DNA from: a virus
Lineage: Duplodnaviria > Heunggongvirae > Uroviricota > Caudoviricetes
IMG/VR virus record: IMGVR_UViG_2529292833_000014
DNA length: 10,899 bases
Direction: 5' to 3' (one strand)
A model generated the notes under the pieces. That model saw nothing but the letters and a program-made list of their open reading frames with translations. It ran no database searches and had not been told where the DNA came from. The position numbers and the translations under genes were made by a program. Positions 1 through 10,335 of the stretch are shown in pieces. Numbering within the stretch: position 1 is the stretch's first letter; each line of letters begins with the position of its first letter.

Positions 1-1230
1 ATGAGCAGAGCACTTAACAAACTGAGCGATACACAGCTAAGAAAAATCAACGGCACACCAGCCCCAAAAACCACATTTCTTAATGACGGTGGAAACCTGA
101 GCGTCAGGCATTCCACCAGCGGCTTGTTAACCTGGTATTTCACCTACAGGGCAGGAGCTGGACGCCAGGTATCACCGGAACGCCTGAAGCTGGGAAATTA
201 TCCTGATCTGAGCCTGAAAGCAGCCAGGGAAAAAGCGGCACAGTGTCGCGCATGGCTGGCAGAAGGAAAAAATCCACGCCATGAGCTTAATTACTCCATA
301 CAGGAAGCACTAAAGCCGGTAACGGTGGGTGATGCGATCAGCTACTGGCTGGAAATGCACGTAAAGGAAAACCGTGTCGATTACGTATGCCTGAAAAGCC
401 GCCTGAATAATCACGTCATACAGCATATTGGCAATATGCCACTGGATAAATGCGAGTTACGTCACTGGCTGGCCTGTTTTGACCGGATACGCAAAAAATC
501 CCCTGTAACGTCTGGTCACATGATGCAGGCGTGTAAACAGGCGCTTAAGTTCTGCCGTAAACGTCGCTACGCAGTCAGTAACGTTCTGGATGATCTTAAC
601 GTGGTGGACGTTGGCAAAAAACCAGGCATAAGCGAACGCGTGCTGAGCAACAAAGAACTTGGCGAATTATTACAGGCGCTGGATAAAAAAATATTCCCGC
701 CCTACTACAGCGCACTAATCCGCCTCCTGATTGTGTTCGGCTGCCGAACCGGAGAACTGAGATTATCGGAGATCAGGGAGGGGGATTTTAAGGAAATGCT
801 CTGGACAGTACCGAAAGAGCACAGCAAAACGAAGGTCGCCATATTCAGGCCAATACCGGAAAGCATTTTACCGTTCGTCACGCAGCTGGTGGAGCAGAAC
901 AGACACACAGGGCTATTACTCGGGGAACTGAAACAGGAAGCCAGTGTGTCGCAATACGGCAGATTCATGCACAAAAAATTAAACCATCCGCACTGGTCAC
1001 TACACGATATACGGCGCACGTTTACCACGATGCTGAACGATTTAGGCGTGGATCCGCATATTGTCGAACAACTCACCGCTCACCAGATGCCAGGGATGCA
1101 GCGAGTCTATAACCACTCCCGTTATCTCGATGCGAAACGTAATGCGCTGGACATGTGGACAGAGCGGTTAGAGATACTGGCGGGTACTCACAAAAACGTA
1201 ACCACACTGCCAATAGCCAGAGAAATATAA
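1..1230 (+). CDS. int: Tyrosine recombinase / phage-type integrase (P4-like Int family), 409 aa
   Basis: Full-length ORF. C-terminal region has the HxxR box (HDIRRTF) and a downstream tyrosine (RVYNHSRY) typical of tyrosine recombinases; N-terminus resembles the P4/CP4-57 integrase arm-binding region. The ATG is at window position 1, so upstream signals cannot be assessed. Confidence 0.9.
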   Translation: MSRALNKLSDTQLRKINGTPAPKTTFLNDGGNLSVRHSTSGLLTWYFTYRAGAGRQVSPERLKLGNYPDLSLKAAREKAAQCRAWLAEGKNPRHELNYSIQEALKPVTVGDAISYWLEMHVKENRVDYVCLKSRLNNHVIQHIGNMPLDKCELRHWLACFDRIRKKSPVTSGHMMQACKQALKFCRKRRYAVSNVLDDLNVVDVGKKPGISERVLSNKELGELLQALDKKIFPPYYSALIRLLIVFGCRTGELRLSEIREGDFKEMLWTVPKEHSKTKVAIFRPIPESILPFVTQLVEQNRHTGLLLGELKQEASVSQYGRFMHKKLNHPHWSLHDIRRTFTTMLNDLGVDPHIVEQLTAHQMPGMQRVYNHSRYLDAKRNALDMWTERLEILAGTHKNVTTLPIAREI

Positions 1231-1250
1231 TTTTTTTTGCGATTTTTTAG

Positions 1251-1310
1251 AACTGACACAACGTGAAACAACGAGACACCACGACGAACAACGGCGAACA
1301 ATCTGGAACA
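1251..1310. repeat. Helically phased direct repeat array, five to six 10-bp units (consensus ACGnnGAACA)
   Basis: Seen directly: units ACGTGAAACA, ACGAGACACC, ACGACGAACA, ACGGCGAACA, ATCTGGAACA begin at 1261, 1271, 1281, 1291, 1301 with exact 10-bp period, 20-80 bp after the int stop. Confidence 0.5.
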
Positions 1311-1597
1311 AACTTGATTAACATCTGACTGACACCCTAAAAAGTTGATTTTCAGTCGTTTTACTGGCTTTTTGTACATTGGCGAATCACTCTTAAAAAC
1401 ATGTAAAAAAGGCGTAAAAACAGAATTTTATGCCTTTGCACCACAATGAATTAAAAGAGTTTTTATTCTCATTACCACACTTCTGTAAAATGACCGCCGC
1501 CAGTGTTTGCCATTCCATAAACACCCTGACACAATCCGACGCACCACAACACAATAGGACACCAAATAACTCTTTAAGAAATATCAAAGGGGGAATT

Positions 1598-1786
1598 GTG
1601 TTAAGCACAGATCGCTTTATACGTGAAAAAGAATGTCAGCAACTTACAGGCCTGAGCCGTTCATGTCGGTACCGCCTGGAAAAAACCGGACAATTCCCAT
1701 CACGGCGTAAGCTCGGCGGTCGTTCCGTTGGCTGGTCTTTATCCGAAGTTCTGGCATGGAAGGAAAGCTGCGAGGCAGTTCACTAA
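1598..1786 (+). CDS. alpA: AlpA-family (MerR-like HTH, excisionase/activator type) regulator, about 62 aa from a GTG start
   Basis: Motif QQLTGLSRSCRYRLEKTGQFPSRRKLGGRSVGWSLSEVLAWKES matches the AlpA/Xis-type HTH pattern (LGGR.VGW). GTG at 1598 follows AAAGGGGGA by 4 nt; the ORF is open back to 1430, but that N-terminal extension lacks an RBS and looks non-coding. Confidence 0.7.
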   Translation: MLSTDRFIREKECQQLTGLSRSCRYRLEKTGQFPSRRKLGGRSVGWSLSEVLAWKESCEAVH

Positions 1787-1838
1787 TCAGGCTGGCGGCA
1801 CACAGCCGCCACCCATCCACTAATACAGAGATCTAACC

Positions 1839-2216
1839 ATGAATACTGGATATTCTCCCGAACAAGGGCGGGGCTTCGTTCGTCCTGAAAAACAGAATCT
1901 GCAAAATTTTGCCGAAATTATTCCGGTTATTTCCGGCCTTACTGGCGGGAGTGAAACCAATATTGTTAACGCCAGAGCGTTGCAGATGTTTGATGATAAA
2001 AAGGGAGTAAATTTAACTTACACCCCTGACGGCAATCAGAATATGAGCATTATCTCTGAGTCAGGTTTCTACAAACTAATAAAAACAAAAAGCGCCCCGT
2101 TGCCGGAGCGCCTTTGTGAACAATTAACCTACTGCGCAAAAAATGAATCTGAGCAGTGGGATTATATCAACCGTGTGGCGAAGCGCCACAATTGCCGGAT
2201 AACAGGCAAAACAAAG
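1839..2216 (+). pseudogene. Bro-N-like (phage antirepressor N-terminal domain) gene remnant; only the N-terminal ~125 codons look protein-like
   Basis: Translation DDKKGVNLTYTPDGNQNMSIISESGFYKLIKTKSAPLPERL resembles the Bro-N core (EKGV.LT...GG.Q.MSIINESGLYSLI..S..PEA). The same frame then runs on to 3251 as Ser/Arg-rich low-complexity sequence, antisense to better ORFs and across a promoter region. End coordinate is approximate. Confidence 0.3.
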
Positions 2217-2314
2217 GCCACCCGCTACGGTGGCCCCTCGACACAAGCTACACGTTATCCCCAACGCATGAGCATCACCAACAATGCCACATTTGCGGCT
2301 GGTGGGCAATGTGA

Positions 2315-2503
2315 TCAGTCAGATTTGGTTCGTTCCAAGGTTTGCAACGAGAGCTTTTTCCTGTGCTCTTTAAGGAATTTCTCAAGAGCAAAAGCACATG
2401 GCGCGAATCTTTCTGATTCATGCTCTATCTTTCTGCGCCGTCTTTTCCGTGCCGGTGATAATGTTTTGGTCAATTCTTTATCGGTCATTGTGTTGTCCTG
2501 CAT
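2315..2503 (-). CDS. Hypothetical small basic protein (62 aa)
   Basis: ORF on the minus strand directly downstream of the 2546..2851 gene and co-oriented with it; Lys/Arg-rich (ARKRRRRKIEHE). No recognisable domain. Weak support. Confidence 0.3.
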   Translation of the reverse strand: MQDNTMTDKELTKTLSPARKRRRRKIEHESERFAPCAFALEKFLKEHRKKLSLQTLERTKSD

Positions 2504-2545
2504 AGCAATGCGCCGTAATACCTTACACCACGGCGCTGGTGATGG

Positions 2546-2851
2546 TCACTCCTGCTCTTTGGCCTTGCGACGCTGGAGTTCTTCACGCGCGACGGTGATG
2601 AGTTGCCCGATCTCCTCGGCTGCTTTGACTCCGATTTTTTCCACCTGCGCCAGTGCATCGAGCGAAGAAACCAGGGGATTTTCTCCGCTTCCTTCTGCCT
2701 GGCGGCGGGCGATCTCACCGCGAACGGCTGTAATCACGAAAGCGGCTATTGTTTCCCCTTCCGTTTTCGAATTTTCCATTTCCTCGATTACATCATGGGG
2801 GAAGCGGATATTTTTCATTTGCGATCTGCTGTTGATATTTCCTGTTGCCAT
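2546..2851 (-). CDS. Putative small DNA-binding regulator (101 aa), possibly ribbon-helix-helix type
   Basis: Protein-like composition, in contrast to the Ser-rich opposite-strand frame. The N-terminal segment KNIRFPHDVIEEME followed by helical stretches is compatible with an RHH fold (inference). Transcribed divergently from the operator-bearing promoter region. Confidence 0.5.
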   Translation of the reverse strand: MATGNINSRSQMKNIRFPHDVIEEMENSKTEGETIAAFVITAVRGEIARRQAEGSGENPLVSSLDALAQVEKIGVKAAEEIGQLITVAREELQRRKAKEQE

Positions 2852-2872
2852 CAGAATGTCCGGTTATTTTGA

Positions 2873-2975
2873 GGTGTGCATACATTACACCAAAAGGTGT
2901 GTAAATAAAACACTTGACACTGTAGCGCACTTAAATTTAATCTGTACACACACCAATGATTGTGGTGTATGTACA
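2873..2975. promoter_or_regulatory. Divergent regulatory region: sigma70-like promoter (TTGACA 2914..2919, N16, TTTAAT 2936..2941) with repeated operator-like motif GGTGTRYRTACA
   Basis: Seen directly: GGTGTGCATACA (2873..2884), GGTGTGTAAATA (2896..2907), and an inverted pair TGTACACACACC (2943..2954) / GGTGTATGTACA (2964..2975) with a 9-bp spacer, immediately downstream of the -10 element. Confidence 0.5.
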
Positions 2976-3047
2976 GCAAAGCCCCGCAGTGCTGGAACAC
3001 ATGCAGGGCTTCTAACCACCAACGATAGCGAAAGTATCGAGGTAGCT

Positions 3048-3251
3048 ATGAGAAATTATACCAGACACCCGCAAGGGCGGGACTCGTACAACCTGAATAA
3101 ATACATCTGGCGTTTTATCGCCCTGAGCACGGCACAACCGCGCGTGATTACCATTGAGGCCACCAGCGAACAGGAAGCGCGTCAGCAATCTCCTGATGGC
3201 TGCGTGATGGTATTCGCTGCCCGTATTCGCCAGGGGGAACACCATGATTAA
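3048..3251 (+). CDS. Small protein (67 aa), Icd-like (host cell division inhibitor-like) family candidate
   Basis: ATG at 3048 preceded by GAGGT; motifs YIWRF and VMVFAARIRQGE resemble small prophage/satellite proteins annotated as Icd-like (from memory, moderate certainty). It is the C-terminal part of the long 1839..3251 reading frame. Confidence 0.5.
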   Translation: MRNYTRHPQGRDSYNLNKYIWRFIALSTAQPRVITIEATSEQEARQQSPDGCVMVFAARIRQGEHHD

Positions 3252-3453
3252 CCTGTCACTTACTGACCTTAACCGCGTTCAGTTTCGTGAGAAATTTACC
3301 GGGCAGCTACTGGTCAATGTGGATAAAGGTCGCGTGGTGTGTAATTACCACCTGCCAGATGAAGCCATTGTCGCAACAAGGGAATCATTACAGGAACTCG
3401 CAGAACGTGCCGGAATGATTAACGCGAATATTCAGGGGGTGAGCCATGCATAA
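3244..3453 (+). CDS. Hypothetical small protein (69 aa), paralog 1 of a tandem pair
   Basis: RBS GGGGG 6 nt upstream; start overlaps the previous stop by 8 nt; shares a (V/Y).(V/L)(D/E)KGRV.C core with the next gene. Confidence 0.6.
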   Translation: MINLSLTDLNRVQFREKFTGQLLVNVDKGRVVCNYHLPDEAIVATRESLQELAERAGMINANIQGVSHA

Positions 3454-3658
3454 TCATGAAACGCACTTACCTGTAGTGCTGAATGTGCCATCAGATTATA
3501 CGGGGCGCGTACTGGTGTATCTGGAAAAAGGCCGGGTTAAATGTCAGTGCCGTTTAATGGAAAACGAATTTATTAGCACTCTTGCGGGATTTTCTGAAAT
3601 GCTCACTAAATCGGGTGTTAGTGCAGACCAGTTACGCGGGGGCGATTATGCGAAATAA
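3446..3658 (+). CDS. Hypothetical small protein (70 aa), paralog 2 of a tandem pair
   Basis: RBS GGGGGTGAG upstream; overlaps the stop of paralog 1; about 30 percent identity to paralog 1 by eye (TG..LV...KGRV.C...L.E). Confidence 0.6.
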   Translation: MHNHETHLPVVLNVPSDYTGRVLVYLEKGRVKCQCRLMENEFISTLAGFSEMLTKSGVSADQLRGGDYAK

Positions 3659-3866
3659 ACATGATATTGAAGACCTGGCATTTGAAGCCCTGCACTCTGC
3701 GAAAAAAATCAGGGAAGTCGTCAATATGTGGATGAACAGCCTTAGCACCGATGAATCCGATAGCAGAGAGGAAATTCTTATTTCTTTGTTGTTAGACCTG
3801 GCAAATACACAGGTTTCTCTGACATCTGATATTGAACTCGCCGCTAAAAATCTGCCTCTGGAGTAA
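3648..3866 (+). CDS. Hypothetical small acidic protein (about 72 aa)
   Basis: ATG at 3648 in the 3582..3866 frame, overlapping the previous stop by 11 nt, G-rich RBS upstream. No recognisable domain. Confidence 0.45.
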   Translation: MRNKHDIEDLAFEALHSAKKIREVVNMWMNSLSTDESDSREEILISLLLDLANTQVSLTSDIELAAKNLPLE

Positions 3867-3872
3867 AAAAAC

Positions 3873-4172
3873 ATGAAACAGAAAAATTCTGGCTTTACTG
3901 CCAGTGGTCTCCCTCGGCCTGAAATCCGCCCCGGCGATATTTTCCGGGATAACTACGGTGGCACGGTAACGATTAAAAGCGTGGCGGGGCGGGGCGTTAC
4001 TTACCGCCGTGATGGGTACGGCTATGACTGCGTGATGCCTGCTTATCAGTTCCGGCGTGATTTTTCACTGATACAGGCCACACCACGCAAACAGCCCACC
4101 AGCAACGCAAAGGCACGGGCAAATATTCAGAAAATGAAAAACATGATTAACGCATTCAGGGGCAAAAAATGA
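3873..4172 (+). CDS. Hypothetical protein (99 aa)
   Basis: RBS GGAG about 8 nt upstream; stop overlaps the start of the replication gene (ATGA). No recognisable domain. Confidence 0.6.
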   Translation: MKQKNSGFTASGLPRPEIRPGDIFRDNYGGTVTIKSVAGRGVTYRRDGYGYDCVMPAYQFRRDFSLIQATPRKQPTSNAKARANIQKMKNMINAFRGKK

Positions 4173-5584
4173 AACTGGCACCGAACTTAAAAAAACAGCC
4201 ACACGACAAAATGACCGAAGTCATTATTTTTGCGGGTAGTGATGCCTGGGCGCACGCGAAACAGTGGCAGGAACAGGACGGGCGACTTGCTGGTGATAAC
4301 GTCCCGCCTGTATGGCTGGGAGACAGCCAGCTTGACGAACTGGCAGACCTGAAAATTATCGACGATGGTCGCTATTGTGTCCGGCTGTACAAGGCAGGCC
4401 ACATCAAGCCGTCAAATATTAATGCTATCGGGCAAAAGCTGGCGGCGGCAGGTGTACGGGATGCGAATTATTACCCTGATGGAATGCACAGCCAGAAGCT
4501 GGAGAACTGGCACGACTACCTGCAACGGATCCGCGAACAGGCAGAGCGCGGGGAAATACTTACTGACGAGCAATACAGCCAGCGAAAAACCACGCTACCA
4601 ATGAGCATTGGATCTGCAGGGTACGACACACAGCTTGATTATGTCGTTAAGGGCGTGATTCCGGCTAATTCATTGTGCAGCACATACGGCGCGAGCGGTT
4701 CCTATAAATCGTTCCTCGCGTGTTCCTGGGCGTGTCATGTTGCCACTGGCCGTCACTGGGGAGGCCGCAGGGTGGCGCATGGTTCGGTGATGTATGTTGT
4801 CGGTGAAGGTGGCATTGGTGCCCCCCGCCGTATCAAGGCATGGGAAATCGTTAATGATGAACGGGTGGAAAATCTGTACCTGGTAAACCGCCCGATTTTT
4901 CCGGCAGTCCCGCTTGATGTTGATGAAATGGTCATCGCTTCCCGCCAGGTTGAACGGGAAACGGGTAAACCGGTACGCATGATTATTCTTGATACGCTGG
5001 CGCGTTGCTTTGGCGGTAATGATGAAAATGACGCGCGGGATATGGGGGCGTTTATCCGTGGATGTGACGAACTGAAACGCCGCACAGGGGCCACGGTGCT
5101 GGTGGTTCACCATTCCGGCAAGGATGAAACAAAGGGGGCGCGTGGTTCCAGTGCATTTCGTGCATCTCTGGACGCTGAATACCGTATTCGCCGTGAAGGT
5201 GCAGACAGTGAAGCCCTGGTTATCTCCTGCACAAAAATGAAGGACGCGGAGGAACTGAAAGAGGCCGCATACGATTTACGTGTGGGGGAGCTTTTTACCG
5301 ACACTGACGGGGAGTTAATCACGTCGCTGGTTGTTGTGGATAAGCCGCGCCCACCCGTTGAACTGGAGCGCATCGAGGAAGCCGGGAACAAGACGGAGAA
5401 TCATGCCGCGCTATGGGGCTGTATCCGTTCACGCACACAGCGCGGAGATAAATGCACTATTCCGTTGTTGCGCGATGATATGAAAAAGCTGGGGTATGAG
5501 ATGAAACACTTCCGGCGCTGGCTGTACAAGCTGGAAGGTGATGGCGTTATTGCTATTGACGGTGATGACGTGCGCCCACTGTAA
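4169..5584 (+). CDS. Replication initiator / RepA-like (AAA_25, RecA-fold) ATPase with a probable C-terminal DNA-binding domain, 471 aa
   Basis: P-loop-like YGASGSYKSFLA, Walker-B-like hydrophobic stretch ending in D (MIILDTLARCFGG), and VLVVHHSGKD typical of RepA/DnaB-like AAA_25 proteins; followed immediately by an iteron cluster. Translationally coupled to the upstream gene. Confidence 0.8.
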   Translation: MKLAPNLKKQPHDKMTEVIIFAGSDAWAHAKQWQEQDGRLAGDNVPPVWLGDSQLDELADLKIIDDGRYCVRLYKAGHIKPSNINAIGQKLAAAGVRDANYYPDGMHSQKLENWHDYLQRIREQAERGEILTDEQYSQRKTTLPMSIGSAGYDTQLDYVVKGVIPANSLCSTYGASGSYKSFLACSWACHVATGRHWGGRRVAHGSVMYVVGEGGIGAPRRIKAWEIVNDERVENLYLVNRPIFPAVPLDVDEMVIASRQVERETGKPVRMIILDTLARCFGGNDENDARDMGAFIRGCDELKRRTGATVLVVHHSGKDETKGARGSSAFRASLDAEYRIRREGADSEALVISCTKMKDAEELKEAAYDLRVGELFTDTDGELITSLVVVDKPRPPVELERIEEAGNKTENHAALWGCIRSRTQRGDKCTIPLLRDDMKKLGYEMKHFRRWLYKLEGDGVIAIDGDDVRPL

Positions 5585-5776
5585 AAAGTGGGTAGTAAAA
5601 GTGGGGAGTGTGGGGAATTTAACAAAATTGAAACGTGATTCCCCACTTTCCCACCTGTATATACCCCAAAAAGTGGGGAATAAAAAACACATTGAAAAAC
5701 ATCACGTTAGAATCACAAAAAAAAGAAGTGGGGAGACGTTGGGTAATTTCAAAAAGTGGGTAGTAAAAGTGGGGAG
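5583..5776. repeat. Iteron-type origin of replication: two identical 26-bp direct repeats flanking further AAGTGGGGA(G) copies and an AT-rich spacer
   Basis: Seen directly: AAAAAGTGGGTAGTAAAAGTGGGGAG at 5583..5608 and 5751..5776 (identical); extra copies at 5609..5617, 5671..5680, 5726..5735 and one inverted at 5639..5648; AT-rich stretch 5680..5725. Confidence 0.65.
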
Positions 5777-5785
5777 CAGTGAGGA

Positions 5786-6037
5786 ATGACCAGAAAAACC
5801 AGAGATAAGACAGCGCCAAAATATAAAGCGTTAGACATGACAGAGCACGCCTTAAAGGTGGCAATCAGAACGATAGACCGCCACGCTGGGGAAGGATACG
5901 CGAAAGCACACCCCGAACTGATAAGCGCATTCATGACCACGACGGCGGCAAACTTTGCCACGCTGACAGAACGGGAGATTGCCGAAGCGGAACAGGTGAC
6001 AACCATCAACGTTAAAACTGGAGAGCAGACAGCATGA
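5786..6037 (+). CDS. Hypothetical protein (83 aa)
   Basis: GGGGAG 9 nt upstream of the ATG; stop overlaps the ssb start (ATGA). No recognisable domain. Confidence 0.5.
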   Translation: MTRKTRDKTAPKYKALDMTEHALKVAIRTIDRHAGEGYAKAHPELISAFMTTTAANFATLTEREIAEAEQVTTINVKTGEQTA

Positions 6038-6399
6038 CAGCACAGATAGCGGCTTACGGGCGGCTGGTGGCTGACCCGCAGTTAAAGACCACCAGCAAGG
6101 GTACACAAATGACGATGGCTAGTATGGCGGTCCCCCTTCCGTGCAGCCAGGCAGATGACGGAACGGCGACGATGTGGTTATCCGTCCTGGCGTTTGGCAG
6201 ACAGGCCGACGCACTGGCAAAACACCACAAAGGCGAACTGGTGAGCGTGGCGGGTAACATGCAGGTAAGGCAGTGGACAGGCCAGAACGGCGAAACGCGG
6301 CAGGGCTGGCAGGTTATCGCAGACAGTGTAATCAGTGCCAGAACGGCGCGACCGGGCGGCAAAAAAAAGGTCAACAGGACCAGGCTACTGACGCACTGA
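6034..6399 (+). CDS. ssb: Single-stranded DNA-binding protein (OB-fold core), 121 aa in the zero frame; the canonical acidic tail is encoded in the -1 frame
   Basis: WLSVLAFGRQADALAKHHKGELVSVAGNMQVRQWTGQNGETRQGWQV aligns with the E. coli SSB core (WHRVVLFGKLAEVA...GQLRTRKWTDQSGQDR). The zero frame ends ...GGKKKVNRTRLLTH without a tail. Confidence 0.75.
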   Translation: MTAQIAAYGRLVADPQLKTTSKGTQMTMASMAVPLPCSQADDGTATMWLSVLAFGRQADALAKHHKGELVSVAGNMQVRQWTGQNGETRQGWQVIADSVISARTARPGGKKKVNRTRLLTH

Positions 6400-6458
6400 A
6401 CAGGGCAAAACAACAGTCGGGGAATGATGATCCGTACGGCGATAATATACCGTTTTAA
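6363..6458 (+). other. -1 frame segment encoding the SSB linker and acidic tail (...QQSGNDDPYGDNIPF), reached from the ssb frame at the A8 run / A_AAA_AAG heptamer (6363..6369)
   Basis: Seen directly by translating the -1 frame from the A run 6361..6368. The tail tip DNIPF matches the conserved SSB C-terminus (DDDIPF in E. coli SSB). Confidence 0.6.
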
Positions 6459-6475
6459 ATTCTGCAAATAAAAAA

Positions 6476-6504
6476 ATGCCGGAAGAAAATAGATTTTCCG
6501 GCAT
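6476..6504 (-). terminator. Intrinsic-terminator-like hairpin oriented for leftward transcription
   Basis: Perfect 9-bp stem ATGCCGGAA (6476..6484) / TTCCGGCAT (6496..6504) with an 11-nt loop. The A7 run at 6470..6476 becomes the U tract only on the minus strand; there is no T run after the hairpin on the plus strand. Confidence 0.4.
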
Positions 6505-6675
6505 GCTACATAAATCCCGACCAAAGGAAGTAAATACATTAACACGAATTATCAGCACTGAAGTTGTCACGGCAGATTTTATACAACATTGCACTTGGTT
6601 GCATGTATTCGCATAGCAAATATCGGTGATAGCATATATCCACAATTATTTTTAATGAATGCAAAGAGGATGCGT

Positions 6676-7716
6676 ATGGTTGATTTATATTCGCCTGCCC
6701 AGCTTGTGCAGGTGGCTAATGCTGAAGATGTGCAAAAAAAATTAAATGCGTTGTTTACCAGTTTGTTTTTCACTCGCTCGGTAATGTTTGAATCGAGAGA
6801 CATTATTCTTGATACGATCGACGATCCAAATATCCCGATCGCGGCGTTTTGCTCTCCTATGGTGGGCAGTAAGGTTTCACGAGATGAGGGATACGAATCA
6901 AAAACAATTCGCCCTGGCTATATGAAACCGAAAAGCAGCATTGATCCAAATAAGTTAGCTGTGCGCCCTGCTGGTGTGTCACCTGAGCAATACAATGCTT
7001 TTGGGGCGCGTAATATTAAAGTTAAACAGGCGATTGTAAATCAGGCTAAAGCTATTCGTGCACGTATTGAATGGCTTGCTGTTCAGGCAATCACAACGGG
7101 GAAAAATATCATTGAGGGCGATGGTATTGAACGTTATGAGCTGGACTGGAATATAAAACCACAAAATATTATCACGCAGTCTGGCGGTGCTGAGTGGTCA
7201 GGTAAGGATAAAGAAACTTTTGATCCAAATGATGATATTGAGAGCTACGCAGAATTTAGTGAGGGCGTCACTAATATCATCATTATGGGCGGTAATGTAT
7301 GGAAGAAATACCGTTCATTCAGAGCGATAAAAGAGGCTCTGGATACCCGTCGTGGTTCTAATTCCGAACTGGAAACGGCCCTTAAAGACCTTGGTGATTC
7401 GGTGAGTTTTAAAGGGTATATGGGCGATGTTGCGATTGTTGTTTACAGCGGACGTTATACCGACGAGGACGGAACTGAAAAACATTTCCTTGATCCTGAT
7501 TTGATGGTGCTTGGCAATACGGCTCTTCAGGGGATTGTCGCCTATGGCGGTATTCAGGATCCGGAGCTAATCCGAATGGGGCTGACTAAAGCCGAACTTG
7601 CACCGAAAAACTATATTGTGCCTGGTGATCCGGCTATTGAGTACGTACAAACGCACTCTGCACCACAGCCAATACCGGCCCGCATCAATCGTTTTGTTAC
7701 CGTTCGCATTGGCTAA
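6676..7716 (+). CDS. Major capsid protein, lambda gpE-like (about 346 aa)
   Basis: Long collinear matches to lambda gpE as recalled: ITQSGGAEWSGKDKETFDPNDDIESYA vs ITQSGGTEWSKRDKSTYDPTDDIEAYA, and LDTRRGSNSELETALKDLGDSVSFKGYMGDVAIVVYSGRY vs LDTRRGSNSELETAVKDLGKAVSYKGMYGDVAIVVYSGQY. Start chosen at ATG 6676 (GAGG 6 nt upstream); the ORF is open from 6589. Confidence 0.9.
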   Translation: MVDLYSPAQLVQVANAEDVQKKLNALFTSLFFTRSVMFESRDIILDTIDDPNIPIAAFCSPMVGSKVSRDEGYESKTIRPGYMKPKSSIDPNKLAVRPAGVSPEQYNAFGARNIKVKQAIVNQAKAIRARIEWLAVQAITTGKNIIEGDGIERYELDWNIKPQNIITQSGGAEWSGKDKETFDPNDDIESYAEFSEGVTNIIIMGGNVWKKYRSFRAIKEALDTRRGSNSELETALKDLGDSVSFKGYMGDVAIVVYSGRYTDEDGTEKHFLDPDLMVLGNTALQGIVAYGGIQDPELIRMGLTKAELAPKNYIVPGDPAIEYVQTHSAPQPIPARINRFVTVRIG

Positions 7717-7725
7717 GGGGGAGCA

Positions 7726-8067
7726 ATGGCTACTCATTACACTGAACTCATGTCTGGCACTGAAGCACTGGTTACTACGCTGGGGATATTTTCAGCCAAT
7801 AAAGGGGTAATACCTGCGTTTACGCCACTGATGCAGGAAGATGCAACTGGTGCGCTAGTGGTATGGGATGGAACGAGCGCAGGCAAAGCGGTTTATGTTT
7901 CCGCTGTACAAATCGACACAGCGAAAAAAACACAGGCACAGGTTTATAAGACAGGTGTTTTAAATGTTGATGCTCTGAACTGGCCTGAGTCTGTAAAAGA
8001 ACTGTCGGCAAAGGTTGCCGCGTTTGTTGGCTCAGGTATTTCTGTTCAGCCGCTGGCTCGTGTGTAA
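7726..8067 (+). CDS. Head decoration protein, lambda gpD-like (113 aa)
   Basis: FTPLMQEDATGALVVWDGTSAGKAV...YKTGVLNVDALNWPE matches lambda gpD [25 protein letters not shown]...YKSGTFRYEDVLWPE (recalled); similar length; RBS AAGGGGGAG. Confidence 0.85.
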   Translation: MATHYTELMSGTEALVTTLGIFSANKGVIPAFTPLMQEDATGALVVWDGTSAGKAVYVSAVQIDTAKKTQAQVYKTGVLNVDALNWPESVKELSAKVAAFVGSGISVQPLARV

Positions 8068-8078
8068 AGGGGGATACA

Positions 8079-8462
8079 ATGCAGAATCATTACAATGACC
8101 TTAAGCCAATTGCCGAAATGATGTATCCGGATCCAGCAGTAGAGGAATTAAAGGCTATTGCTGACAAAATGCGTTTAAGTGAACGCCTTGTTGATATGAA
8201 TCAGGTGATGGAACTTACTACCCTTAGCCGTCGCACATTGCTAAACCTTGAGGCTCGCGGAGAGTTCCCCGAACGCGTACAGGTTACGGAAGGGCGTGAG
8301 GCCTGGTATTTAAGCGAAGTGATCGACTGGATAAACAATATTCCTCGAGCTTCTGAATATTGCCGCGTACCTGTCCCAAAAAAGCCAGATGCGGCGCTAT
8401 GCCTCAAGATTGAGCGTGTACGCCGCAATGCACGGGATGGTCGCTATAAGTTGATTGGTTGA
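8079..8462 (+). CDS. AlpA/MerR-like HTH domain protein (127 aa) with N- and C-terminal extensions
   Basis: Central segment MNQVMELTTLSRRTLLNLEARGEFPERVQVTEGREAWYLSEVIDWINN has the AlpA/excisionase-type HTH pattern; RBS AAAGGGGGA. Sits between the decoration gene and the cos site. Confidence 0.65.
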   Translation: MQNHYNDLKPIAEMMYPDPAVEELKAIADKMRLSERLVDMNQVMELTTLSRRTLLNLEARGEFPERVQVTEGREAWYLSEVIDWINNIPRASEYCRVPVPKKPDAALCLKIERVRRNARDGRYKLIG

Positions 8463-8488
8463 TGAAATTAGGGCCCGTTCTGGCTGGC

Positions 8489-8600
8489 GGGTCCTTTCCG
8501 GCGATCCGGTAGGCTACGGGGCGGCGACCTTGCGGATTTTCGCTATTTATGAGCCTTTTCGGGTTGGTGGTGGTGGTTTTGTTTTTCGCTCTATCTCTAT
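8489..8600. other. Lambda-type cos site (cosQ-proximal region, cosN with 12-nt cohesive-end sequence GGGCGGCGACCT at 8519..8530, divergent cosB-like region)
   Basis: Seen directly and compared with the recalled lambda termini: GGGTCCTTTCCGGCGATCCGGTAGGCTACG / GGGCGGCGACCT / TGCGGATTTTCGCTATTTATGAGCCTTTTCGGGTT versus lambda GGGTCCTTTCCGGTGATCCGACAGGTTACG / GGGCGGCGACCT / CGCGGGTTTTCGCTATTTATGAAAATTTTCCGGTT. Sequence diverges from lambda downstream of about 8567. Confidence 0.8.
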
Positions 8601-8663
8601 GAATAAAAAGGGAAAGATAACACCAACACACCAACCTGAAACCTTAACTAAGTGGGGATATTG

Positions 8664-9206
8664 ATGAAATCGCACCTGATGAACAAAAAAACTATGGCGC
8701 AAAGCTGCCGCGTAAGTGCGACAGCGTTCGACAAGTGGGGAGTAACTCCCGTTGAGCGTAAAGGCCGTGAGGCGTTTTATGATGTTGCTAGCGTGATAGA
8801 CAATAGGGTTAACAATGCAATTAACCAGCTTACAAACGACAAAGGCGAGATTGATGATGATGAACTTTTACGCGTAAGAATCAGATTGCTGACAGCACAG
8901 GCGGAAGCGCAGGAACTTAAAAACGAGCGCGAACGCGGCGAGGTGATTGATACAAAGTTTTGCATCTACGCGATTTCAAAACTAGCGAGTCAGATTTCAT
9001 CAATCATGGACAGCCTCCCGCTCACAATGCAAAGGCGCTTTCCCGATATAAGGCCGTATATGCTGGATGAACTAAAAAGGGAAATAGCCAAAGCATGTAA
9101 CGCATGTGCAAGACTTGACGAAAACCTGCCACAGATACTGGCTGATTACCTGATGGAAACTACCGGAAGCGCGCCTGAGAAGTTGCTACAGAACAAAGGC
9201 GAGTAA
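8664..9206 (+). CDS. Terminase small subunit homolog, lambda gpNu1-like (candidate packaging-redirecting protein)
   Basis: RLLTAQAEAQELKNERERGEVIDTKFCIYAISKLASQISSIMDSLPLTMQRRFPDI matches lambda Nu1 RLTRAQADAQELKNARDSAEVVETAFCTFVLSRIAGEIASILDGLPLSVQRRFPEL (recalled); the N-terminal NKKTMAQ aligns with Nu1 NKKQLAD. Start is uncertain: ATG 8664 has the best RBS (GGGGA, 5 nt), ATG 8679 fits the Nu1 alignment best, and the ORF is open from 8652. Confidence 0.85.
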   Translation: MKSHLMNKKTMAQSCRVSATAFDKWGVTPVERKGREAFYDVASVIDNRVNNAINQLTNDKGEIDDDELLRVRIRLLTAQAEAQELKNERERGEVIDTKFCIYAISKLASQISSIMDSLPLTMQRRFPDIRPYMLDELKREIAKACNACARLDENLPQILADYLMETTGSAPEKLLQNKGE

Positions 9207-9279
9207 CCGCCGCCCCGTAACGGGCCATAATTCCAGGAAGGACCTGACGACACCAGGCTATCAGAGCGATGGGGGCACA

Positions 9280-9561
9280 ATGACAGAAGCCGAAATACTG
9301 CGATTAATCCGCCGCGTTACCGGAATCAGCCAGCAGGCTGACGAACAGGCCACGCAGCCGGACAGCGTGACCGCTGAAAATTATGTGCGTGTTGTTGCTG
9401 AGGTGATGCGCCGTGACGGTATCGAGCTTAACGGCGTGGATATGCGCAACATACGCACCAGAGTTCTGGAGATGTTGTCGTACCGTCGCCGCGTGCAGAT
9501 GTACCAAGAGAAAGAAAAAATTACTTACCACTGGAAGAAGCCGGAACGGTTACGACGTTAA
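9280..9561 (+). CDS. Hypothetical protein (93 aa)
   Basis: ORF with GGGGG 4 nt upstream of the ATG; no recognisable domain; last gene before the non-coding boundary region. Confidence 0.45.
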   Translation: MTEAEILRLIRRVTGISQQADEQATQPDSVTAENYVRVVAEVMRRDGIELNGVDMRNIRTRVLEMLSYRRRVQMYQEKEKITYHWKKPERLRR

Positions 9562-9607: not shown

Positions 9608-10093
9608 AGACGGTATTTAAATCGGGTGGTGTTTAATACCCCCAGGGGGATAGAAATCCCTACACCTCATTGCTTATGGGACCGCCCGCCTACCCTTGTT
9701 CACATCGCCGCAGGTTCGAAAACTTTTTTTGGGAAGGTGTGCACGGGATTGATAGATGAGGTCTATCTATAAAAAATCACAAAATCCGCGCCATTGCTGG
9801 ATCCGCCAAAAATCCCCCACCTTACGGCAGACAAAGAAAACGCGAATTATGGGCCTGTTGCAGAGAAAAAAGGTCTCACTAGTTTTGCGCACCCTAGCAT
9901 CGAGGTTCGTCAGCCTCCCATCAGCAACCAGATAACTAATCTCGCTGGTGGGCATGATGCCGATATGGGGACTTCCATAACGGTTTATCCGTGATCATCC
10001 ACCAGCTTCATGGCGGATAGCCGGAAAATGATAACGGTATAGCCCGTCGCTTGTGTCTATTTGTTCCGCATTGTTGCATACAGTGCACCGAAC

Positions 10094-10117
10094 GGTGTAG
10101 TTAATGGTGTAGTTAAT
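10094..10117. repeat. Perfect tandem duplication of the 12-mer GGTGTAGTTAAT
   Basis: Seen directly at 10094..10105 and 10106..10117, in the AT-rich region upstream of the Smr-domain gene. Confidence 0.85.
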
Positions 10118-10335
10118 TTGCGATTTTTAACGTTATTTGCAGCGATGTTTGTTGGTTAAATTCAATAAGTTATGCGCATTTAATTATAAATATCGTGAAT
10201 GAATAATCATGCATAAGCATTTTGCTTAAAATATCGGCAATATTTGGAACTTATTACTGGAATTTTGGGTAATACGTTGTTGGACCGACCCGGTCTGGTT
10301 ATCATATCGCGCTCTTAATTGCGGGAGGATGTAAC

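Follow-up and report, generated by a model that had tools for sequence, protein, structure and literature searches.

The window, by which we mean the whole stretch of 10,899 nucleotides analysed here (IMG/VR virus record IMGVR_UViG_2529292833_000014), contains, judged by its sequence, a satellite, a phage-inducible chromosomal island (PICI) of Escherichia coli that belongs to the EcCICFT073/EcCIDi14 family and needs a helper phage. It carries a cos site of the lambda type in which cosQ and cosN are identical to those of lambda and the adjoining cosB is of another kind, and immediately 3' of this site it carries a gene for a full-length small terminase (TerS). Based on our data we propose, with a probability of about 0.6, that the cosB of the island is bound by the island's TerS, which guides the large terminase (TerL) of the helper to a helper-compatible cosN. 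The combination of conserved cosQ/cosN with a different cosB is a published hallmark of E. coli PICIs (PMC6092414, PMC6739421, PMC9026076). What appears to be new here is the anatomy of the terS-type site, with an R3 and an inverted R2 from an N15/Monarch cosB, the matching change in the recognition helix, and a full-length TerS instead of Rpp. We found no paper dissecting the cos site or the TerS of TerS-type E. coli PICIs, although the literature coverage was incomplete and such absence is not proven.

Results

Lambda-type cosQ and cosN next to a cosB resembling that of N15 and Monarch

The original prediction held that the cohesive ends and about 30 bp on either side are near-identical to those of lambda. 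The likeness is real: GGGCGGCGACCT matches the annotated 'cos site' of phage DE3/lambda at 12/12 positions, and the flanks match lambda at 26/30 positions on the left (8489-8518) and at 29/35 on the right. GGGCGGCGACCT is present once, and the window has no second cosN; the predicted nicks fall at 8518/8519 on the top strand and at 8530/8531 on the bottom strand. The 7-bp cosQ, highly conserved among lambda-like phages (PMC4669245), lies exactly 30 nt upstream of the predicted top-strand nick, with the 7-mer and the spacing of lambda/DE3, and is kept in all PICI-type cos sites of three genera. The block CGCTATTTATGAG, which is kept in lambda-type, N15/Monarch-type and PICI-type cos sites of many genera, served as the anchor for the alignment of cos sites. 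When 8440-8700 was compared by blastn with 50,697 phage records, 85 lambda-like matches were found (87-89% identity, E down to 9e-20), all of them confined to 8487-8565, so that likeness to any deposited phage stops at the start of cosB. No match to Rfam was found in the window and no sigma-70-like promoter around cos.

To the right of cosN, no lambda-type R elements (CGTTTCC(G/T)TTCT...) occur between 8531 and 8663, the lambda R sequence CGTTTCCGTTCTTCTT is absent, and a GGT tract is present at 8562-8576, all as originally predicted. The same prediction described the rest of the region as unrelated sequence, and this does not hold. The similarity to lambda runs through 8565, and beyond it cosB has not been replaced by unrelated DNA but aligns with the cosB of N15/Monarch-type prophages at ~76% identity, with R3 and R2 recognisable; by this likeness we take it to derive from the N15/'Monarch' class. 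In N15, R3 was defined by block mutations at bp 48-59, where a scramble of GTTGTT at bp 54-59 cost ~100-fold in yield (Feiss et al. 2015, PMC4669245), and the 'Monarch' prophages share the recognition helix and the R3 of N15 but have a complex R3-I1-R2-R1 layout (PMC4669245). The N15 R3 reads GAGGTTGTTGTT at bp 48-59 (GAGGTTGTTGTTT at bp 48-60), and Monarch-type prophages (L010, L011 and L016) have GGTTGTTGTTTAA at bp 51-63, followed by TATCTAATTGATA, which matches the consensus for integration host factor (IHF) at 8/9 positions, by an inverted ACAACAACC and by a third, direct copy (R1). The R3 of the window stands in the register of both N15 R3 and the Monarch-type GGTTGTTGTTTAA. It is homologous to the class R3, GGTTGTTGTTT at ~bp 50-60, and yet changed: over bp 51-62 the window reads GGTGGTGGTTTT, with T-to-G at bp 54 and 57. 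The R2 likewise differs from the phage-type CAGGTTGTTGT by a single T-to-G change, and the inverted ACACCAACC is found at 8628-8636. Of the Monarch layout, R3 and the inverted R2 are thus present and conserved, whereas the window lacks an I1 consensus and has a degenerate R1. R3 lies at ~bp 51-63 and R2 at ~bp 110-120, as compared with ~bp 53-68 and 105-120 in lambda by our own count. On position and alignment, then, the GGT tract is read as the equivalent of R3 and 8628-8638 as that of R2 (Table 1).

Across eight PICI-type sites (Escherichia, Kosakonia, Superficieibacter) six islands are conserved, namely cosQ, the left half of cosN, GCGCTATTTATGAG, the R3 tract, the spacer motif TATC...TGA.T, which is kept across PICI types, and R2. 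R3 is the most conserved island of cosB among these E. coli, Kosakonia and Superficieibacter elements. A scan with an R3-containing pattern matched 97 IMG/VR contigs; in 95 of them exactly 120 nt separate the TATTTATG motif, with which the conserved block to the right of cosN opens, from the terS start codon, and R2 ACACCAACCTG is invariant in 95/95 relatives, its flanks being variable. R2 belongs to a 13-nt inverted repeat (8557-8569/8629-8641) that is 92% complementary, where an estimated ~0.01 would be expected by chance in 200 nt. The R1 region varies among relatives, which makes a role of R1 in the window doubtful; in the siblings L007-L009 its position holds AAGTTGGTGTATTA, 11/11 to the reverse complement of R2. 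A second copy of TTTTCGCT, to which the original prediction had drawn attention, does exist at 8583-8590. With 8 nt, an estimated ~0.3 copies expected by chance in 200 nt and TTGTTTGCT in its place in siblings, it was rejected as a functional repeat and is treated as chance.

The recognition helix of TerS covaries with the R sites

A profile scan of species-representative genomes yielded 80 Nu1-family loci (a scan with the single protein gave no match in the same genomes), to which E. coli siblings and metagenomic relatives were added. The lambda-type helix S(I/V)RTIQNW has a lambda R3 upstream in 26 of 29 loci. The helix SVQAFDKW, found in many genera (Pseudomonas, Aeromonas, Erwinia, Trabulsiella and others) and with many different cosN, has GTTGTTGT upstream in 33 of 34 loci, and the helices SATAFDKW, GVTAFDKW and GLTSFDKW, all in PICI contexts, have a GGTGGTGG-like tract upstream in 19 of 19. 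The window carries SATAFDKW, whereas 34/34 phage-type loci of the N15/Monarch class carry SVQAFDKW. All the PICI helices have a change from Gln to Thr in common, at the position that aligns with Arg17 of lambda where the recognition helix begins, and 18 PICI TerS have T20 without exception. R2 also differs by class, being CAGGTTGTTGT in phages, CAGGTTGGTGT in E. coli PICIs and CAGGTGGGTGT in the GVT/GLT group. Among the 95 IMG/VR loci with the fixed 120-nt spacing, 92 have the helix SCRVSATAFDKWG.

A full-length small terminase as the candidate reader of cosB

TerS scores 83.8 bits against the Pfam family Phage_Nu1 (PF07471; cutoff 30, E = 1.3e-23), and its gene starts 145 bp after the nick, compared with 190 bp from cosN to the ATG in lambda. 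Along its whole length it has 37% identity to lambda Nu1 (178 aligned columns; TerS 6-166, Nu1 3-180), 48% to N15 gp1 and 51% to the Monarch-type TerS of the prophages L010 and L011. The Nu1/gp1 alignment and a predicted helix-helix-hairpin-helix pattern fit an N-terminal winged helix-turn-helix, in a model of low confidence (pLDDT, the predicted local distance difference test, 55.9), and a sequence search of solved structures returned no meaningful match to TerS. The DNA-binding domains of PICI TerS form one group (69-96% identical among themselves), with 55-62% identity to N15/Monarch and 33-40% to lambda. The segment homologous to the gpA-binding C-terminal region of lambda Nu1 is present as well and is 31-50% identical to that of phage TerS.

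The AlpA-like protein encoded at 8079-8462 was also considered as the reader of cosB and was rejected, since the gene in that place is an unrelated one in siblings whose cosB and terS are identical. As the gene upstream of cos differs among siblings that share cosB and terS, it is TerS and not the upstream product that would read cosB. The gene directly 5' of cos in the window encodes a 127-aa AlpA-like helix-turn-helix protein (phrog_2790, 'excisionase and transcriptional regulator'). The same slot in EcCIDi14, EcCICFT073 and O157-type siblings is taken by an unrelated 137-aa protein (phrog_1999, with weak likeness to a head maturation protease), and the two look like alternative alleles.

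Table 1. Elements of the cos region and neighbouring features, in positions of the window
Feature	Position	Strand	Sequence and remarks
cosQ	8489..8495	+	GGGTCCT
cosN, cohesive-end sequence	8519..8530	+	GGGCGGCGACCT
Block between cosN and cosB (I2 region of lambda)	8541..8553	+	CGCTATTTATGAG
R3 equivalent, proposed primary TerS binding site	8562..8581	+	GGT tract GGTTGGTGGTGGTGG at 8562-8576; in-register R3 GGTGGTGGTTTTG at 8569-8581 (bp 51-63 from the left end)
Conserved core of the AT-rich R3-R2 spacer	8592..8604	+	TATCTCTATGAAT; where lambda and Monarch have their IHF site I1; aligns with Monarch-type TATCTAATTGATA
Extra half copy of R2	8620-8627		ACACCAAC
R2 equivalent, inverted relative to R3	8628..8638	-	ACACCAACCTG on the + strand, CAGGTTGGTGT on the - strand
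Degenerate R1-like element	8650..8663	+	AAGTGGGGATATTG; abuts the terS start codon
terS	8664..9206	+	Full-length small terminase, 180 aa, Nu1/gp1 family; proposed reader of the window cosB
attR	10093..10118	+	26-bp direct repeat CGGTGTAGTTAATGGTGTAGTTAATT; exact repeat in L002 at 2954 and 13093
Monarch-type site, for comparison			GGTTGTTGT

A PICI with terS in the place of rpp

The PICI is ~10.2 kb long as measured from the 26-bp direct repeats at both ends, attL lying 47 bp upstream of window position 1, and its insertion site in E. coli O114:H49 strain 90-9280 is flanked by abgR and smrA. Its genes are, in order, a tyrosine integrase (int), alpA, an Icd-like/anti-repressor-like protein, a RepA-type helicase and a frameshifted SSB, followed by a lambda gpE-like capsid protein, a gpD-like decoration protein, the AlpA-like protein, cos, terS and a 93-aa open reading frame (ORF). 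No tail, lysis, portal or TerL gene was found in the element, and because it is read as a PICI satellite its TerL must come from the helper. The int-alpA-replication-capsid-like order, the length of ~10 kb, the att repeats and the lack of tail, lysis and terL genes are those of a Gram-negative PICI, and so is the joining of a helper-type cosQ/cosN to a non-helper cosB, a comparison that includes the Kosakonia pair described below. The Rpp of such islands, which redirects the helper TerS, is missing, and its slot holds the full-length terS.

An alignment over 73% of the window length gives 97% identity to the island of clone D i14. That island lies among fragments of insertion sequences (IS) and shares with the window both TerS (WP_000835284.1) and the sequence that begins at cosN and runs to the right. 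We take this island to be EcCIDi14. EcCIDi14 is known as a reference PICI located in an IS110 transposase gene (PMC10111431). The window also shows synteny to the right end of EcCICFT073, whose rppA holds the position of terS. Some Gram-negative PICIs carry a terS homologue, as noted in a study that itself dealt with EcCICFT073 and PmCI172 alone (PMC6092414); SatelliteFinder counts terS as a core PICI component (bioRxiv 10.1101/2022.09.14.508007).

In EcCICFT073, cosQ and cosN are like those of lambda/phi80, cosB is different, and Rpp heterodimerises with the helper TerS to read it (Fillol-Salom et al. 2018, PMC6092414; 2019, PMC6739421). Four Rpp-type sites that were analysed have no repeated R, with a single R3 proposed at bp 48-65, and Rpp (135-153 aa) is without the TerL-binding C-terminus (Murialdo & Feiss 2022, PMC9026076). 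The window shares with EcCICFT073 cos1 the island family, the position between a capsid-like gene, a decoration gene and one variable gene on one side and the 93-aa ORF on the other, the lambda/phi80-like cosQ and cosN, and a non-helper cosB next to the gene of a DNA-binding protein, which in EcCICFT073 is the winged-helix protein of the island that reads it (PMC6739421). It differs in having a full-length 180-aa TerS unlike RppA, R elements that are repeated and inverted with a recognisable phage ancestry, and no second cos site. The proposed R3 of EcCICFT073, CACCACCACCAC (bp 54-65, L004:2612-2623), is a GGT/ACC repeat in the orientation opposite to that of the window R3 (8562-8576) and at nearly the same distance from cosN; Rpp and TerS are dissimilar, and this shared repeat may be a coincidence.

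We also considered that the island TerS acts in the manner of Rpp, mixing with the helper TerS, which would bridge to TerL, while the island protein reads cosB and poisons helper packaging. The terS gene occupies the exact locus of the sibling rpp beside a cos with helper-type cosQ/cosN, Rpp is known to heterodimerise with TerS, and the transfer of EcCICFT073 requires the helper TerS (PMC6739421, PMC9026076). In addition, the central helical domain of TerS is 44-52% identical to that of phage TerS, so that mixed oligomers are conceivable, and its C-terminal domain is not close to that of phage TerS (31-50%, and for the Kosakonia island 38% to the TerS of its co-resident helper). Unlike Rpp, which lacks the C-terminal domain (PMC9026076), the island TerS keeps the whole Nu1 architecture with a C-terminal segment conserved within the PICI family. 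RppA matches positions 12-52 of the phrog_57 profile only, that is the DNA-binding part, whereas the profile covers TerS residues 1-172, and BLASTP gave no alignment between TerS and RppA. Moreover, the C-terminal half of the Superficieibacter homologue is lambda-like (62-67%), as expected with selection to fit the helper TerL. We regard the Rpp-like mode as less likely than direct contact with TerL, and it is the alternative to which we give the most weight.

The Superficieibacter TerS (L015:1501-2004) is a chimera of a PICI-type DNA-binding domain (GVTAFDKW) and a C-terminal domain 62-67% identical to lambda-type or N15 TerS, the lambda-type proteins compared being those of lambda and of the Kosakonia prophage. 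It suggests a domain swap to fit the helper TerL. For the window itself, the best phage TerS sought by its C-terminal domain was ~50% identical, too distant for the helper to be predicted.

Links to lambda-like helper prophages

A group of TerS 55-57% identical to that of the window (Enterobacter, Citrobacter and other Enterobacteriaceae) belongs to PICIs lying inside the capsid gene E of lambda-like prophages, an arrangement described as the 'helper-embedded PICI' (PMC10111431); these islands are followed by the 3' part of E and then by FI, FII, Z, U, V, G, T and H. The cargo after terS is variable among the E-embedded islands (L096-L099, L101-L103 and L014, on contigs of Enterobacter, Citrobacter and Kosakonia type), consisting of FRG and DUF3892 proteins or of a 402-aa protein.

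In Kosakonia sp. S29 the cos and terS of such a PICI (L014) are followed by the helper E fragment, and the lambda-type terS and cos of the prophage (L081) lie 15.3 kb upstream on the same contig. The two sites agree in cosQ, at 29/30 positions of the spacer and in having the variant cosN GGGCGGCAGACT (cosQ-cosN 41/42), and diverge to the right of cosN, where the PICI has the GGT tract and the prophage the lambda-type R3. This is the pattern expected if the helper TerL cuts and the satellite supplies recognition, and a cosN match between a PICI and a co-resident prophage was seen in this one pair.

Distribution and mobility of the module

At least 80% of 8463-8663 is present in 533/5,426 complete E. 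coli genomes, and the 3' half of terS in 793/5,426, including O157:H7 and Nissle 1917, so that the module occurs in about 10-15% of complete E. coli genomes. The site had been called private, which is apt in that it is specific to a satellite family and inapt in that it is not unique to this element. All the genomic contexts that we opened are PICIs. No TerL-sized ORF follows terS in any of the 36 evaluable IMG/VR loci, the next ORF encoding a protein of 91-93 aa.

These counts bear on the notion that cosB and terS are simply those of a helper class yet to be sequenced, read equally well by the helper TerS and thus without any satellite-private specificity. Such plain mimicry agrees with the descent of the module from a phage N15/Monarch-type cosB and terS, with the second cos of true phage-type cosB found in siblings, and with one sibling that has a phage-type cos only, without terS or rpp. 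It is nevertheless improbable, since none of the 50,697 phage records matches this cosB past 8565 or has a TerS more than 48% identical, the contexts examined among 5,426 E. coli genomes and 97 IMG/VR contigs are all PICIs with no TerL after terS, and a helix with Thr at its third position was never seen with phage-type R3 alone.

A decaying defective prophage, in which the cos-like sequence and terS no longer function, is less probable still. The ssb gene is frameshifted in this copy, R1 is degenerate, the IHF consensus is missing, and some other copies have an IS in terS. Against this, terS is intact here, the conservation of cosQ, cosN, R3 and R2 extends to hundreds of genomes and to different genera, with an invariant R2 and a fixed spacing, and the same module is found at different chromosomal sites and inside helper prophages, which argues for ongoing mobility.

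Several observations concern the variation of this locus. In an O157:H7 strain an IS3 element lies inside terS (L094:849-2698), and a protein cluster (P0085, 232 aa) fuses the N-terminal two thirds of TerS to the 93-aa ORF, which points to a deletion that removed the C-terminus of TerS together with the intergenic region. Siblings have a second, inverted cos (cos2) between terS or rpp and the 93-aa ORF (L007:2410(-), L008:2411(-), L009:2383(-) and L004:3309(-)), with an ordinary phage-type cosB of three R elements from at least three families (CAGATCCGTTCTTCTT, CATGTCG(G/T)T... and ATGTCCGGTT); the gap between terS and this ORF is 73 bp in the window (9207-9279) vs ~255 bp in the cos2 siblings. 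In E. coli S1-CAM-02-A (L012:1440-2103) two convergent cos sites, one with a Monarch-type cosB and one with a cosB of the EcCICFT073 cos2 type, occur with no annotated terS or rpp, and here the locus might hold a third type of packaging module, one that is protein-free.

The sequence left of cosN is of at least three types that assort independently of cosB (L003, L006, L015, L100, L104-L200); EcCIDi14, for example, is as EcCICFT073 on the left of cosN and as the window on the right. At least eight cosN 12-mers are joined to the same PICI cosB, e.g. GGGCGTCAGGCG, GGGCGGAGACC and GGGCGGAAGGC, a pattern in which cosN seems to behave as a recombination junction.

Two further features of the window lie among its replication and regulatory genes. 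The ssb at 6034-6458 is annotated as frameshifted in this copy and is intact in EcCIDi14. The 470-aa ORF at 1839-3251 is annotated as 'Icd-like', though its last ~90 residues alone match the Icd/'transcriptional repressor' phrog; its residues 49-84 are weakly like anti-repressor (Ant/Bro) proteins, and the Icd-like gene of EcCIDi14 encodes 68 aa.

Discussion

We propose that a lambda-like helper would induce the island, which would then excise and replicate. With its predicted N-terminal winged-helix domain the island TerS would bind R3 (8569-8581) and the inverted R2 (8628-8638), probably with the AT-rich spacer between them bent, and its retained C-terminal domain would position the helper TerL on cosN, where the helper-like cosN and cosQ would let the helper enzyme nick and terminate. 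The helper TerS would fail to recognise the island cosB, so that packaging of the island would be insulated from that of the helper. From the size of 10.2 kb and by analogy with EcCICFT073 (PMC6092414), the island DNA would probably be packaged into heads of full size, as 4-5-mers.

Our comparisons show the anatomy of the site, its homology and that of TerS to N15/Monarch, the covariation of helix and R sites, the lack of TerL and the cosQ-cosN shared by the Kosakonia pair. That TerS binds DNA and recruits TerL directly, and that cleavage takes place, is what we infer in this scheme, and several of our results weigh against it. The scan for the IHF consensus WATCAANNNNTTR (>=8/9, bp 1-150) finds no site in the window or its E. 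coli siblings, whereas the same scan does detect such matches in lambda as well as in Monarch-type sites. R3 and R2 of the PICI class agree at only 9/13 positions in register, and the GGT repeat permits several registers, so that any assignment of contacts to single bases is uncertain. The AlphaFold model of TerS has low confidence. The C-terminal domain of TerS is a mosaic: two E. coli PICIs are 71% identical in it, no phage TerS compared exceeds 50%, and that of the Kosakonia PICI is 38% identical to the TerS of its helper; at such low identity direct binding to TerL is not assured. As the PICI types probably form one clade, the covariation of helix and R sites may reflect one or few evolutionary events. 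Contigs starting at cosN, sought as a proxy for packaged ends, numbered 0/97 among the IMG/VR contigs with this cosB, which is uninformative either way.

The original prediction had inferred cleavage by a lambda-type large terminase with recognition supplied by a different small subunit; this core we regard as sound, the interpretation as a whole being partly supported. The island's own full-length terS, the absence of TerL, the covariation of helix and R sites and the Kosakonia pair all agree with it; what has to be amended is that the element is evidently a PICI, whose TerL must be derived from the helper, that conserved cosQ/cosN with a different cosB was already known from E. coli PICIs, and that this cosB is a widespread derivative of the N15/Monarch type.

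Placed among known systems, the window resembles lambda (cosQ-cosN-I2-R3-I1-R2-R1, read by Nu1) in its identical cosQ and cosN, the spacing kept, flanks 83-87% identical, terS immediately 3' and similar positions of R3 and R2. It departs from lambda in R sequences unrelated to CGTTTCC(G/T)TTCT, in the DNA-binding domain of its TerS, and in having no I1 consensus and no clear R1. To N15 and Monarch it is tied by the full-length likeness of TerS and the register of R3, and to Monarch in particular by the layout of R3, spacer and inverted R2; it is set apart from both by its helix, its R3 GGTGGTGGTTTT, the T-to-G change in R2, the loss of the IHF consensus, the degenerate R1 and the lack of an adjacent terL. 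The staphylococcal pathogenicity islands (SaPI) of the pac type likewise use a small terminase of their own to redirect the large terminase of the helper (PMC6739421, PMC6092414), but they package by headful from pac sites with an unrelated TerS family, whereas the window has a cos site with a helper-type cosN.

Taken together, these comparisons allow a wider reading, which we hold more tentatively than our proposal and at somewhat less than even odds: the module of TerS-type enterobacterial PICIs would represent a third, satellite-only specificity in the N15/Monarch lineage, set by the Gln-to-Thr change of the helix with the T-to-G changes of R3 and R2, making direct use of the helper TerL, independent of the helper TerS and invisible to it, with cosN as a swappable junction through which one cosB/terS cassette could be adapted to helpers that differ in their cohesive ends.

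If our proposal is true, cos-type Gram-negative PICIs would possess two different mechanisms for capturing lambda-like packaging, the second being one in which the small terminase is replaced and not hijacked via Rpp. The module would also be a natural specificity switch for the reading of R sites by Nu1-family TerS, with the Gln-to-Thr change in the helix paired with GTT-to-GGT in the DNA, and offers a possible orthogonal cos/TerS pair for engineered packaging. Its commonness in E. coli bears on the spread of these islands and their cargo.

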